Shown here: positions 1-4,009 of the stretch, one piece after another
Numbering within the stretch: position 1 is the first letter of the stretch
Layout of the letters: every line of letters begins with the position of its first letter
Virus record (IMG/VR): IMGVR_UViG_2703718811_000004
Reading direction: 5' to 3' (one strand)
DNA length: 7,144 nucleotides
DNA from: a virus
Lineage: Duplodnaviria > Heunggongvirae > Uroviricota > Caudoviricetes
Program-made: the position numbers and the translations under genes
The notes under the pieces: generated by a model
Database searches by the model: none
What the model was told of the DNA's origin: nothing
What the model saw: only the letters and a program-made list of their open reading frames with translations

Positions 1-2179
1 TCATAGTGTGCTGCCGCCTTACCCTTAGCCCTTCACGTACCGGTGCTGTCGCGTTCTGCGCATCCGGTGACGGCAGACCACGACGAACCATTTCACCCTC
101 GAGTGTTTCCCCCTGGCGACCAGCGGCGTTTTCCGGTGCCGGAGCTTGTCCTTTCTGGAAACTCTGGCCCTTAACCTCACCGGTTGTGGTAAAACGACCA
201 CCACGTCCGGCCTGATTCTCATCCGGCGTACGCGCCACCTCTCCCGGTAACGGATATCCCTGTCCGGGATGAATATCGCCGGGAGCGGGCAGGCGTGGAC
301 GCTCAGTTAACTCCTGTGCTGTCGGACCGGCATCACCTTCAGCCATCTGTGAACGTACAAGCTCCTCCGCCGTCGGCGCATTGCCACGGGCAAGGCGGGC
401 CTGTACCTCCGTATCATCCCCCGTGAAACCACGGAATCGCGGGTCACGCATGAACGCGGGCTGCTCCATCGGGTCAGCATCAGCAATACGCTCTCCGTCA
501 GCCAGGGTGTTAATGGTTTCCGTTGCCACATCTTCAGAGAACGCAGGATTATCCATTTCAACGGCATACTGATTCTCGCCTTTCTTCACTACGGACGGTT
601 TCAGGCCGGTGGCGGCGGCATTACGGAAAACATCACTCCCCATGGCGCTTTTCTCATCCGTGAAATAACGGTTGTCCGGGCGCACCTTTTCAATGCGTTC
701 CGCTGGTCTGGACGCACCATTCCCGTTAATTTCAATGCGGACTTCATTCGGGTCCCGGAACCGCACCGTCGGGTAAATGCTCCCGTTACCATCCTCCGCA
801 TTTTCAGGCTGTGACTGTGCTTCCGGCGTCACTTCCTGTTGCGGGGCTGCGTCGTCCTGCTGCACGGTTTCAGCATCACGCATGGCGGTTTCTTCTGCGG
901 CCTGACGTCTGCCACGATATCCGGCAACCGCACCGGATGGAGCCCCCATCGCAGCACCAAAGGCTGCACCTTCGATCGTTGCGTCAGCCACGCCCTCCCA
1001 CGGTGACACATCCATTCCGGCGGTCTCACGCAATGCCGTGTTTTCCTGATAGCGTGAATAGCCGCCCTGCGCCGCATTAATCGCCCCCTGTTCCGTGGCA
1101 TTTCTGACAATGCCGCTTTTAACGGTCTTCGCTGTGCCTCGTGTCACCAGATTAAACAGTTGTGCGTCACCCAGTTTTGCCGCCATGGCATTCACAGCCA
1201 GCAATTCAGGATCGGTTGCCAGCTGCGCGCGCACCTCATCGGCAACACGCTCTTTTGCCAGATCCATTTTCTGGCGATCAGTAAGCTGTGCGTGCTGCGG
1301 GTCGGCGTCAATGGACAAAAACGTCTGCTGAAATTTCGGTGACTGCGCCAGCTCAGAGTAATCCGCATTAAGAACAGCATCTGCTGCCGCCATTGCACTC
1401 TGCCCCTGTGCACTGGCTGTGGAATGGGTGATCAGGCCCGCCTGGAATAAATCCGGCATTTTTTTATCGACAGCTTCTGCTGCCAGTGCCGTGGCTCTTT
1501 CCGGCTGCATCCCTGCCGCGATGTATTTTTTCTCCAGCCCGGCGGTCAGCATTTTTCGCAGTGTGACATCACCCACCTTTTTAGCCACACCGCCAACAAC
1601 CATATCAGGTACAAGCGCACCAATCAGGTTTACACCCTTCGCCACCCAGACCGCAGAATCATCATAGCCTTCGGTCATCGGCGTATTCAGCGCACGAACT
1701 GCACCCGGCGACATCTTACCGGTCAGCCATTCATCAGTGGCTTCAGCACCATCACTGACAGCCTTACCGGTTGCCTTCAGACCTTTACCGACAGTATCAG
1801 TAACCGCGTTTTTGCCATCAGGCAGGGTATCGATGACCTCATCAGCCCCCCTGCTGCCACCGGCAAAAATATCCTGCACAGTTGCGACACCCGGCAGCCC
1901 CATACGGCTGAACTCATTTAAAATACGCGCCCCTGTTTTTACCGGGCTCTGAATCATCGCATCACCGAGTCCACGGGCCATTTCCCCTGTTCCCCGGACG
2001 GACTGGGCGAAACCTTTACCCATTGTTGGCAATACATCGCCCAGGCTGAACGACGTACTGTTATCCTTCCAGCGATTCGGATCAGAGAAAAATGCTTCAT
2101 AGCTGTCAGTTTCGCCGGGTTGCTGAATGTTCAGGCTGTTACGATTCTGGTTGCGGGAATTTCTCACCACACGCTGCAT
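1..2179 (-). CDS. Large hypothetical protein, 5' portion only (over 725 codons in window; stop codon lies beyond position 1). Ala/Gly/Asp/Glu-rich with a polar Ser/Asn/Gln-rich N-terminus. Function unknown.
   Basis: Manual translation of the minus-strand frame whose codons are plus-strand triplets starting at positions congruent to 2 mod 3 (e.g. 2-4, 1079-1081, 2177-2179): no stop codon from 2314 down to 1. The ORF track omits it because it has no in-window stop. The five short minus-strand ORFs listed for 25-1413 are all one alternative frame broken by stops. Candidate starts: ATG 2177-2179 (no good SD) or in-frame GTG 2201-2203 preceded by GGTGAGAG. Start of translation: MQRVVRNSRNQNRNSLNIQQPGETDSYEAFFSDPNRWKDNSTSFSLGDVLPTMGKGFAQSV... 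No motif I can assign to a family. Confidence 0.75.
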   Translation of the reverse strand, partial: MQRVVRNSRNQNRNSLNIQQPGETDSYEAFFSDPNRWKDNSTSFSLGDVLPTMGKGFAQSVRGTGEMARGLGDAMIQSPVKTGARILNEFSRMGLPGVATVQDIFAGGSRGADEVIDTLPDGKNAVTDTVGKGLKATGKAVSDGAEATDEWLTGKMSPGAVRALNTPMTEGYDDSAVWVAKGVNLIGALVPDMVVGGVAKKVGDVTLRKMLTAGLEKKYIAAGMQPERATALAAEAVDKKMPDLFQAGLITHSTASAQGQSAMAAADAVLNADYSELAQSPKFQQTFLSIDADPQHAQLTDRQKMDLAKERVADEVRAQLATDPELLAVNAMAAKLGDAQLFNLVTRGTAKTVKSGIVRNATEQGAINAAQGGYSRYQENTALRETAGMDVSPWEGVADATIEGAAFGAAMGAPSGAVAGYRGRRQAAEETAMRDAETVQQDDAAPQQEVTPEAQSQPENAEDGNGSIYPTVRFRDPNEVRIEINGNGASRPAERIEKVRPDNRYFTDEKSAMGSDVFRNAAATGLKPSVVKKGENQYAVEMDNPAFSEDVATETINTLADGERIADADPMEQPAFMRDPRFRGFTGDDTEVQARLARGNAPTAEELVRSQMAEGDAGPTAQELTERPRLPAPGDIHPGQGYPLPGEVARTPDENQAGRGGRFTTTGEVKGQSFQKGQAPAPENAAGRQGETLEGEMVRRGLPSPDAQNATAPVREGLRVRRQHTM

Positions 2180-2314
2180 ATACCGGAGAATTTTTTCACT
2201 CACACTCTCACCACAAAAAAGAACAATGTGACTGTGCTGTGTCTTCAGCGACAGAAGGATGACGGAGAACGCTTCCGATAACCAACACGGCTGGCGTTCT
2301 CCGCAAAAAATAAA

Positions 2315-3517
2315 TTACCAGCCGACAGACATACCCGCAGCAACACCTGAACCGTTCTGGGTATCCCATGAAGCATTCAAACGTACAGCAGAATTTTCAG
2401 TGGTGCGGAAGTGCATACCTGCTGCGATAGCCTGCTCATCACGGTAGTTACTTGCAGCCATACCAAAGGAGTACGTTTTACCCTCAACAACAGGAATGGC
2501 AGTCATCGCCATTGCTCCTGCAATACCTGCATCTGCACGTTTACGGTTTTTCTCCACCTCATCACGTAACTGACGGAATTGCTGATTAGTACTACGCTCC
2601 AGGGTACTGACCCGGTTATCTGTGTAGGTATTAGCAGACTTCAGTGTCTGTGCATCACCCTGAATACGGGCATTCTCTTCTGCAATACGATAGCGCTCTA
2701 ACTGACCATAGGTTGCGGCATCCGCAGCCTGAACACCATCACGAAGCCCACCAATTACACGATTCCCCACATTAACTTCATCGGGGCGAGTGGTCTGAGA
2801 GTTAGCCCCTACAGCAACACTGTTCGTATGGTTTGCAATGGCGTTGTAACCGACAGCAGTGGCGTTTTCTCCGCCTGCCGTTGCCCCGCCACCAACCTGA
2901 GTTTTACCGGTGCCCAGAGATGACAGACGGGCGTGAATATCTGTTACATCTGCAGCAGAAAGACCAGTGTCAATAGTGGCTCCATATTGCACAGCCTTCA
3001 TTTTAATTTCATAAATATATTCACTGATTTCAGGAATATGTCTTGAATATGTTTTTCCATCAGCGCCTACAGTCGAGACAACTCCTTCGCCATCTGCACT
3101 AAACAGAATTTGCTTGGTTTTTGTGTTTACAAAATAAGCTGTCTCATTCGCGTAATCATAATAAGAGACGATGTCTCCCCTTGGAGCAGCTAACTCGGTA
3201 TCTGTCAGGCCAGCCTTACCATAATCAATTAAGGTATATTTCAAATATTTACCGGAAACAGCGTCTATATTTAATGAGGTTGGTGTATTCCCGTCAAGAG
3301 AAATAACCTTACCATTCTCAAGCTTAATTAATGGATATCCATCTTGTTTATATACACCGATACCTTTCAAGAAATCCGCATGCTTTATTGCATTACTATT
3401 CAGAGTTTCAGGTGTAACGGAATAACCACTGGCATACGCCCCGACAGAAAATACCGACAGGCTTAATGCCGGCATTAAAGCCAACAATAGCTTGCTTGCC
3501 TTTTTCATGATTTTCAT
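2315..3517 (-). CDS. Trimeric autotransporter adhesin (YadA/Eib family), 400 aa: signal peptide, atypical N-terminal domain, short YadA-like head/neck repeats, coiled-coil stalk, C-terminal YadA membrane anchor.
   Basis: ORF-track protein. N-terminus MKIMKKASKLLLALMPALSLSVFSVGAYA is a Sec-type signal peptide. Head-repeat-like motifs ATAVGYNAIANHTNSVAVGANSQTT and neck-like DEVNVGNRVIGGLRDGVQAADAATYGQLE. Charged heptad-like stalk (RYRIAEENARIQGDAQTLK...RQLRDEVEKNRKRADAG). C-terminus AGIAGAMAMTAIP...YSFGMAASNYRDEQAIAAGMHFR...GVAAGMSVGW matches the YadA anchor pattern ending in GxSVGW. SD-like AAGGG about 8 nt upstream of ATG 3517. Family assignment is from memory of YadA/Eib sequences. Confidence 0.9.
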   Translation of the reverse strand: MKIMKKASKLLLALMPALSLSVFSVGAYASGYSVTPETLNSNAIKHADFLKGIGVYKQDGYPLIKLENGKVISLDGNTPTSLNIDAVSGKYLKYTLIDYGKAGLTDTELAAPRGDIVSYYDYANETAYFVNTKTKQILFSADGEGVVSTVGADGKTYSRHIPEISEYIYEIKMKAVQYGATIDTGLSAADVTDIHARLSSLGTGKTQVGGGATAGGENATAVGYNAIANHTNSVAVGANSQTTRPDEVNVGNRVIGGLRDGVQAADAATYGQLERYRIAEENARIQGDAQTLKSANTYTDNRVSTLERSTNQQFRQLRDEVEKNRKRADAGIAGAMAMTAIPVVEGKTYSFGMAASNYRDEQAIAAGMHFRTTENSAVRLNASWDTQNGSGVAAGMSVGW

Positions 3518-3868: not shown

Positions 3869-4009
3869 CTACTGCTTACACTGTAAGAACGCCGCAAACT
3901 CCGCTCCCCACAAATTCAGCCGGAACTCACACAGTGAACCGTGCAACATCCAGATAGTGAAGATAACCGTCATACAAATTGTGACGGTGATAAGCGATTT
4001 TTGCGACAT
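3869..4009 (-). CDS. Hok/Gef-family type I toxin-like small membrane peptide, 46 aa.
   Basis: Manual translation from ATG (plus 4007-4009) to TAG (plus 3869-3871): MSQKSLITVTICMTVIFTIWMLHGSLCEFRLNLWGAEFAAFLQCKQ. It has a single N-terminal hydrophobic helix followed by the family-typical SLCE motif and a C-terminal E-x-AAF-x-x-C-K pattern (compare Hok/HokA-type peptides recalled from memory). Strong SD AAGGAG (plus 4019-4024) 9 nt upstream of the ATG. Below the ORF track's 60-aa threshold. Confidence 0.7.
   Translation of the reverse strand: MSQKSLITVTICMTVIFTIWMLHGSLCEFRLNLWGAEFAAFLQCKQ

Follow-up and report, generated by a model that had tools for sequence, protein, structure and literature searches.

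The closest described relative of the gene considered here encodes gp47 of the Stx-converting phage phi24B. This protein has been detected by mass spectrometry in purified virions, it is not visible in the cryo-EM map, and the authors of that work propose that it is an ejection protein packaged in the capsid (preprint 10.64898/2026.04.10.717836). The gene family is already known, since it is annotated in RefSeq, where the product of the intact gene is named 'LPD5/LPD38 domain-containing protein', and since a role in the virion has been reported. LPD domains are a hallmark of the 'polyvalent proteins', whose effector-like domains do their work in the recipient cell (Iyer et al. 2017, PMC5512222).

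A second system of relevance is the virion RNA polymerase (vRNAP) of phage N4, gp50. Membrane-spanning helices are predicted in its N-terminal domain (NTD), and the isolated domain enters nanodiscs. The NTD has been proposed to keep the polymerase, once ejected, attached to the inner membrane and to the gp51 tunnel, and it is followed by a low-complexity linker of about 100 residues (PMC13434306, PMC13492108).

The DNA analysed here, the window, is the whole stretch of 7,144 nt in the IMG/VR record IMGVR_UViG_2703718811_000004. [quoted passage not shown] The reading favoured below, to which a probability of about 0.8 is assigned, is that the window contains an eroded copy of this giant gene, that the N-terminal module (N-module) would in the intact protein serve as a handle for delivery and anchoring, and that the copy in the window is a non-functional remnant.

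Identity of the long reading frame

On the minus strand, a frame free of stop codons runs from position 2314 to base 2, i.e., over 771 codons, and has not closed when the window ends. When the probability of a stop is 0.042 per codon, as given by the base composition, the probability of finding 771 open codons is about 4e-15. The GC content is 0.568 in positions 1 to 2179 and 0.45 in the remainder of the window. An earlier note on this DNA, made from the sequence alone, described the frame as GC-rich, running off the window and too long to be the work of chance, and in all three respects it was right. It was right also in likening the GC content to that of phage structural genes, in that the ORF belongs to a late-operon gene that encodes a virion protein. 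At 2203, where the note has the ORF begin, there is a GTG in frame; in RefSeq, the ATG at 2179 starts a small gene, the first nine codons of which are fused to the ORF. The polar N-terminus ascribed to the product (MQRVVRNSRNQNRNS...) is present, and the peptide WEGVADATIEGAAFGAAMGAPSGAVAGYRGRR that was quoted from it is found at ORF residues 394-425 (window 905-1000).

By megablast, the DNA of the ORF is 99-100% identical to a gene that occurs in 425 of the 5,426 complete E. coli genomes and in 186 phage records, nearly all of them Stx-converting (VT2-Sakai, relatives of 933W, Shigella phage 75/02 Stx). By BLASTP, its product is 94% identical to residues 28-476 and 99% identical to residues 569-841 of phi24B vb_24B_48 (gp47, ADN68472.1). 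In the E. coli and phage reference records the intact gene has a length of about 8.4 kb, encodes about 2,794 aa and closes the late operon, and a late-operon setting is seen also for a distant relative. With this degree of DNA identity the ORF, which had been regarded as one of unknown function, is the 5' part of a known late-operon gene of Stx phages. A match to a well-characterised phage protein, the outcome that the earlier note had itself named as speaking against its view, has thereby largely been found, with the qualification that gp47 is identified rather than well characterised. A 'virion structural protein' in PMC12502783 was considered as the same protein and dropped as independent support, the gene of phi346 being annotated as two hypothetical ORFs.

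In the intact reference protein, Pfam places LPD5 at residues 1051-1200, LPD1 at 1361-1440, MuF_C at 1750-1839 and LPD38 at 2477-2682. A CLCA_X-like region has a HEWFH (HExxH) motif at residue 1284, and near the C-terminus PHROGs gives a weak, DarB-like match. The intact protein thus has at least two LPD or effector domains (four by Pfam) and is encoded among the late or virion genes of a portal-terminase phage, which are two of the properties by which a polyvalent protein is recognized. Compared by sequence with the PDB it has no match, and searches of Pfam, NCBIfam and the PDB gave no RNA polymerase domain, so that it is not a vRNAP. The fragment in the window retains none of the four Pfam domains, and it is therefore a fragment of a member of the gp47 family, not an intact member. 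Since the enzymatic domains all lie beyond the retained part, neither a Walker motif nor a catalytic motif is present in the ORF, as had been observed already from the sequence. The 726-aa ORF has no family match in Pfam or NCBIfam, and in PHROGs it matches families of 'unknown function' only. No match to Rfam was found in the window, and the interval from the adhesin gene to the ORF has neither a promoter-like nor a terminator-like site.

Deletion junctions and the fate of this copy

The junctions were mapped base by base against the closest reference, E. coli strain ST866 (L001), to which the blocks of the window are about 100% identical, with short microhomologies between them. No genome collinear with the window was found among the 5,426 complete E. 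coli genomes. Followed along the minus strand, the copy begins with MQRVVRNSR (2153..2179), that is, the ATG and eight further codons of an upstream small late gene (phrog_610, WP_001380385.1) in frame with the giant gene; window position 2179 corresponds to position 5778 of L001, the annotated start of the small gene. Then comes J1 (2149..2152, minus strand; microhomology AACC), a deletion of 3,196 bp in relation to all references. J1 takes away five small late genes (phrog_610, 611, 596, 594 and 601) as well as codons 1 to 14 of the giant gene, and it joins the start of the phrog_610 gene in frame to codon 15 of the giant gene. Block A (846..2148, minus strand) contains reference residues 15-453, the conserved, all-helical N-module, and is 100% identical to the DNA of E. 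coli ST866 and 94% identical, as protein, to phi24B vb_24B_48.

The next junction, J2 (838..845, minus strand; microhomology CAAC), is an in-frame deletion of 315 bp, by which 105 residues (about 454-558 of the reference) are lost; these are conserved in Salmonella homologues and contain the best-predicted helices of the region. Block B (26..837, minus strand) contains reference residues 556-828, a charged linker, disordered for the most part, in which there is one small beta unit. At J3 (25/26, minus strand; microhomology TA) a further 1,285 bp are deleted, and block C (1..25, minus strand) resumes the giant gene at reference codon 1257, read in the +1 frame. Only 25 nt of the window lie beyond J3. 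If the sequence stays collinear after this junction, a stop codon follows eight codons past the window edge, and the predicted product, of about 734 aa, would consist of N-module and linker and be devoid of any cargo domain. The left flanks of J1 and J2 have CCCGCAACC in common.

A fourth junction, J0 (6765..6770, with the join at 6767/6768, minus strand), lies in the fibre genes. Here, a 225-nt fragment from near the start of a 2.2-kb tail-fibre gene runs out of frame into the tail-tip fibre gene at codon 161, with microhomology CAA. A BLAST match spans J0, which was therefore considered as an ordinary mosaic boundary; the comparison at the base level showed instead a deletion at the CAA microhomology. 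An ORF spanning J0 was sought in assemblies and was not found. The end of an IS3-family, IS1203-like element (7037..7144) is located at the window edge. The microhomology junctions are clustered, and it is conceivable, at low probability, that they record a single replication event with multiple template switches.

The ORF does lie next to the adhesin gene, as had been noticed, but it does so only by virtue of the 3.2 kb that are missing in comparison with every reference. What is missing there can be appreciated from a prophage with a giant protein of only about 33% identity in the N-module, where the same five small genes (phrog_610, 611, 596, 594 and 601) stand in unchanged order upstream of the giant gene. 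From this conserved gene order it follows that the giant gene and the five upstream genes form a conserved six-gene module, which points to partner proteins of the giant protein that are worth testing. In the window the cassette of five genes is gone through J1, so that the giant gene does not there come last in the operon after its cassette; the neighbouring fibre, lom and hok genes are kept.

Because of the three deletions at J1 to J3, the loss of the five partner genes, the fibre deletion at J0 and the adjoining IS element, the ORF is most likely a pseudogene, a non-functional remnant in what would be a decaying cryptic prophage. As a counterpoint to decay, it may be observed that the reading frame is preserved at J1 and at J2 alike, an outcome with a chance probability of about 1 in 9 and a possible hint of selection for the product.

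One may ask whether the junctions exist in the genome at all. The gene could be intact, with J1 to J3 arising from chimeric library molecules or from misassembly across similar prophages, and it is indeed unusual to find four junctions within 7 kb among blocks that are about 100% identical to one reference. The junction sequences of J1 and J2 are absent from the 5,426 complete E. coli genomes and from IMG/VR, and that of J2 also from JGI metagenome contigs; the scars are known only from the window and from one Logan contig (run SRR8097454). This contig contains J1, J2 and J3, shares 6,794 nt with the window at a single mismatch, and reaches from 27 nt before J0 to 28 nt beyond J3. At k = 31, such ends suggest that both flanks exist in another copy in that sample, and the fact that the window, too, stops within about a k-mer of J3 points in the same direction. 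Against an artefact stands that a de Bruijn assembler with k = 31 needs reads that span the junction in order to bridge a homology of 2-4 nt, and that the contig runs on without a break across J1 and J2, from which it follows that no competing wild-type path existed there. Furthermore, all junctions are common to two sequences that differ at one base, and the IS end and the fibre-gene deletion mark the element as degraded independently of J1 to J3. An assembly artefact is on these grounds an unlikely source of the junctions.

If the junctions are real, the truncated ORF could be expressed to the benefit of the host, with a protein made up of the N-module residing in the inner membrane and acting in superinfection exclusion, by interfering with ejection from incoming related phages, or in some other membrane role. 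J1 provides an in-frame start codon, J2 leaves the frame as it is, the N-module is intact over reference residues 15-453, and there is no terminator-like site between the ORF and the adhesin gene. The allele is, however, confined to one lineage, 105 conserved residues are gone at J2, a frameshift brings the ORF to its end, the upstream sequence shows no promoter-like site, and the two in-frame junctions are to be expected by chance about once in nine cases. A beneficial product of this kind is improbable. More specifically, the remnant of about 734 aa could be a decoy that inserts into the membrane and blocks genome delivery by Stx phages of the same type, in which case the frames at J1 and J2 would have been selected; this version is very improbable. 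The earlier note left the role of the ORF open between a structural-type gene and exchangeable prophage cargo, e.g., a secreted effector or toxin. The latter suggestion can hardly be upheld: the ORF follows fibre, lom and adhesin genes near the prophage end, and effector-like domains acting in the recipient cell do occur in polyvalent proteins, but the gene belongs to the late operon and is conserved there, with synteny kept even in a relative at 33% identity, its GC content of 0.54-0.57 matches that of structural genes, its product is 94-99% identical to a protein present in virions (phi24B gp47), the part in the window has neither an effector or toxin domain nor a promoter-like site, and the adjacency to the adhesin gene is a product of deletion. 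What was taken for cargo of unknown nature is a defective copy of a widespread virion gene of Stx phages, and it has for this reason no merit as a new effector.

The N-terminal module and its relation to N4 vRNAP

An exhaustive HMMER search with the N-module gave 97 clusters. In long clusters (2,000-4,700 aa) the match is always N-terminal, at 27-34% identity, and the module heads about 90 clusters, mostly of giant phage proteins. Six relatives of the module differ in the cargo that follows it, which includes ddrB-ParB, methyltransferases, an SNF2 helicase, LPD39, LPD5/LPD1, MuF_C and LPD38. The pattern that emerges is that of a constant N-terminus with swappable cargo. Its profile has no counterpart in Pfam or the PDB.

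The stretch WEGVADATIEGAAFGAAMGAPSGAVAGYRGRR, which had been put down as low-complexity sequence, is in fact the best-conserved motif of the N-module. It contains (within 905..1000, minus strand) a GxxxGxxxGxxxG glycine zipper, formed by G413, G417, G421 and G425 and followed by basic residues (arginine). Among 36 distant giant proteins the zipper glycines are conserved to 88-100%, and G264, A313, G342 and N385 are also among the best-conserved positions. The zipper peptide matches Gly-zipper_YMGG below threshold. Of all helices in the protein, VWVAKGVNLIGALVPDMVV (1595..1651, minus strand) is the most hydrophobic, with a Kyte-Doolittle value of 1.5, and W183 in this helix is conserved in 94% of distant homologues.

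When the native 904 residues were modelled with AlphaFold, the pLDDT was 43, which is too low for a fold search. With an alignment of 17 sequences, an all-helical N-module was predicted at moderate confidence (pLDDT 66, pTM 0.51). A Foldseek search of the PDB with the latter model gave no match; the best hits (E 0.08, TM about 0.1) were to membrane transporters, which as fold relatives were taken as noise. In BFVD, the same model matches by Foldseek the first segments of giant phage proteins, including fragments of N4-like 'RNA polymerase'.

The relation to N4 is seen also in the comparison of profiles. By hhalign, the core of the N-module aligns with residues 298-437 of N4 gp50 (about 140 residues) at a probability of 88.8% and an E value of 2.5e-6. 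The score is 55.1, as compared with 14.7 +/- 2.5 (maximum 25) for 60 shuffles, which corresponds to a z of about 16. Only the N-terminal chunk of gp50 matches the N-module, and the hydrophobic segments come in the same order in the two. The N-module is thus homologous, over about 140 residues and at 89% probability, to a part of the N-terminal domain of N4 vRNAP. The Stx phages encode, in addition, a capsid protein of the N4 gp56 type. Two small partner proteins of the Stx phages were compared by BLASTP, as possible counterparts, with gp51 and gp52 of N4, and no similarity was found.

To see what this may mean for an intact gene, consider the layout of the giant protein in the Stx phages: a helical module is followed by a charged and disordered linker to about residue 900, and thereafter by cargo. 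Because of the homology to the N4 NTD, the shared layout and the shared position at the end of the operon, gp50 being the last gene of the N4 virion operon, the N-module with its hydrophobic helix and glycine zipper may be seen as a handle for delivery and anchoring in the Stx phages. The intact protein is, as has been proposed, packed in the capsid and expelled into the cell at infection. Behind the N-module a long and flexible linker would follow, and the cargo domains (LPD5, an HExxH metallopeptidase-like region with LPD1, MuF-C/PBECR and LPD38) would act inside the host.

Modestly new are the wide distribution of the N-module, for which neither Pfam nor the PDB has an entry, and the homology to N4. 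The link to N4 offers a testable idea as to how Stx phages deliver a protein of 2,800 residues, a question that the phi24B authors leave open.

Comparison with known systems

The traits of lambdoid prophage cargo (morons, type III effectors, toxins) are not those of the ORF, which is conserved, syntenic, similar to structural genes in GC content and devoid of effector domains. The nearest relatives are phi24B gp47 and the orthologues in 933W, VT2-Sakai and Shigella phage 75/02 Stx, which are the same gene, with 94-99% protein identity over the retained blocks. These orthologues close the late operon and, like the copy in the window, come after the fibre, lom and hok genes. In comparison with the intact orthologues, the copy in the window is without the first 14 codons, 105 internal residues and all in-frame sequence past residue 828, and thereby without the four Pfam domains; the five upstream partner genes are missing as well.

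Polyvalent proteins such as DarB of phage P1 resemble the intact Stx-phage protein in being giant, multidomain, encoded among virion genes and equipped with LPD domains, which were defined by Iyer et al. (2017). There is also the weak DarB-like PHROG match at the C-terminus, and relatives of the N-module bear a DarB-type methyltransferase and an SNF2 helicase. The Stx-phage protein itself, in contrast, has neither methyltransferase nor helicase, and the fragment in the window has no cargo domain of any kind.

With N4 gp50 the overall identity is low, and where gp50 has its RNA polymerase domain, the Stx-phage protein has as cargo LPD5, HExxH/LPD1, MuF-C and LPD38. The likeness to the NTD of N4 vRNAP (gp50, residues 1 to about 919) resides in the core of about 140 residues, the order of the hydrophobic helices and a Gly-rich helix. 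It extends to the setting: in both cases the domain is the N-terminal part of a giant, virion-packaged protein, the gene is the last of the virion operon, and a long low-complexity linker comes next.

Microhomology junctions and the possible origin of the rearrangement

Four microhomology junctions occur within the 7 kb of the window, and the sequence that remains is ~100% identical. At junctions J1 and J2 (window 2149-2160 and 838-850; segments 5800-5808, 8997-9006 and 10307-10321 of the closest reference locus, L001), the left flanks have the 9-mer CCCGCAACC in common, and the wild-type 15-mer to the left of J2, CCCGCAACCAGAATC, is the same as the product of J1. Shared flank sequence, together with the clustering of four such junctions in otherwise ~100% identical DNA, makes the arrangement look like the outcome of a single event with multiple template switches, rather than of independent deletions.

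Window 6736-6971 includes junction J0 (microhomology CAA), an out-of-frame join. On one side stands a 225-nt piece of a 2.2-kb gene, the one for the lateral tail fibre in O104:H4-type Stx phages, derived from close to the start of that gene; on the other side, the tail-tip fibre gene continues from codon 161. From this follows that the 292-aa ORF at 5982-6860 is a chimera. The tail-fibre remnant adjoins the end of an IS1203-like element of the IS3 family (7037-7144), and the window probably stops there because the insertion sequence is a repeat.

A conserved gene order, and copies of the giant gene that seem broken

The order phrog_610-611-596-594-601-giant gene is kept in Stx phages (L001 5778-17343) and in a distant prophage (L010 4502-15821), where the giant protein has ~33% identity to that of the Stx phages, as measured in its conserved helical N-terminal part. 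Conservation of gene order at this level of N-terminal identity suggests that the five genes and the giant gene form a functional unit of six.

In vB_EcoP_phi346, an infectious, high-titre phage, the annotation divides the giant gene into two ORFs of ~1,000 and ~1,800 aa (L007 6920-9919 and 9946-15339), which reflects either a sequencing frameshift or a tolerated split. The Logan-derived copies P0010, P0012 and P0035 have frameshifted tails at their ends, and the P0035 frameshift lies at the GKG site (DNA GGTAAGGGTAAGG) where junction J3 re-enters the gene. Broken copies seem to be common, and this GKG site may be prone to slippage.

The adhesin gene and its neighbourhood

The adhesin gene (window 2315-3517, minus strand), with a GC content of 34-39% in its 5' half, encodes a trimeric autotransporter of the YadA type, with EibD and Hia as relatives (PDB matches, E ~1e-6). 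It is missing from phi24B and from phage 75/02 Stx, and therefore the adhesin is the inserted cargo, and not the big ORF. Between lom and the adhesin gene, the spacer is low in GC and contains a 46-codon ORF of the Hok/Gef toxin family (3869-4009, minus strand); Rfam gave no match to a Sok-like or hok mRNA family at the gathering threshold.

Comparison with the phi24B giant protein

The phi24B preprint (10.64898/2026.04.10.717836) assigns a metallopeptidase to 'MuF-C', whereas MuF-C is an RNase-like PBECR domain according to Iyer et al. (PMC5512222). In the L001 reference protein, the HExxH motif (HEWFH) occupies residues 1284-1288 in the CLCA_X/LPD1 region, and the MuF-C region residues 1750-1839. 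The peptidoglycan-degrading role that the preprint proposes may have been credited to the wrong domain.
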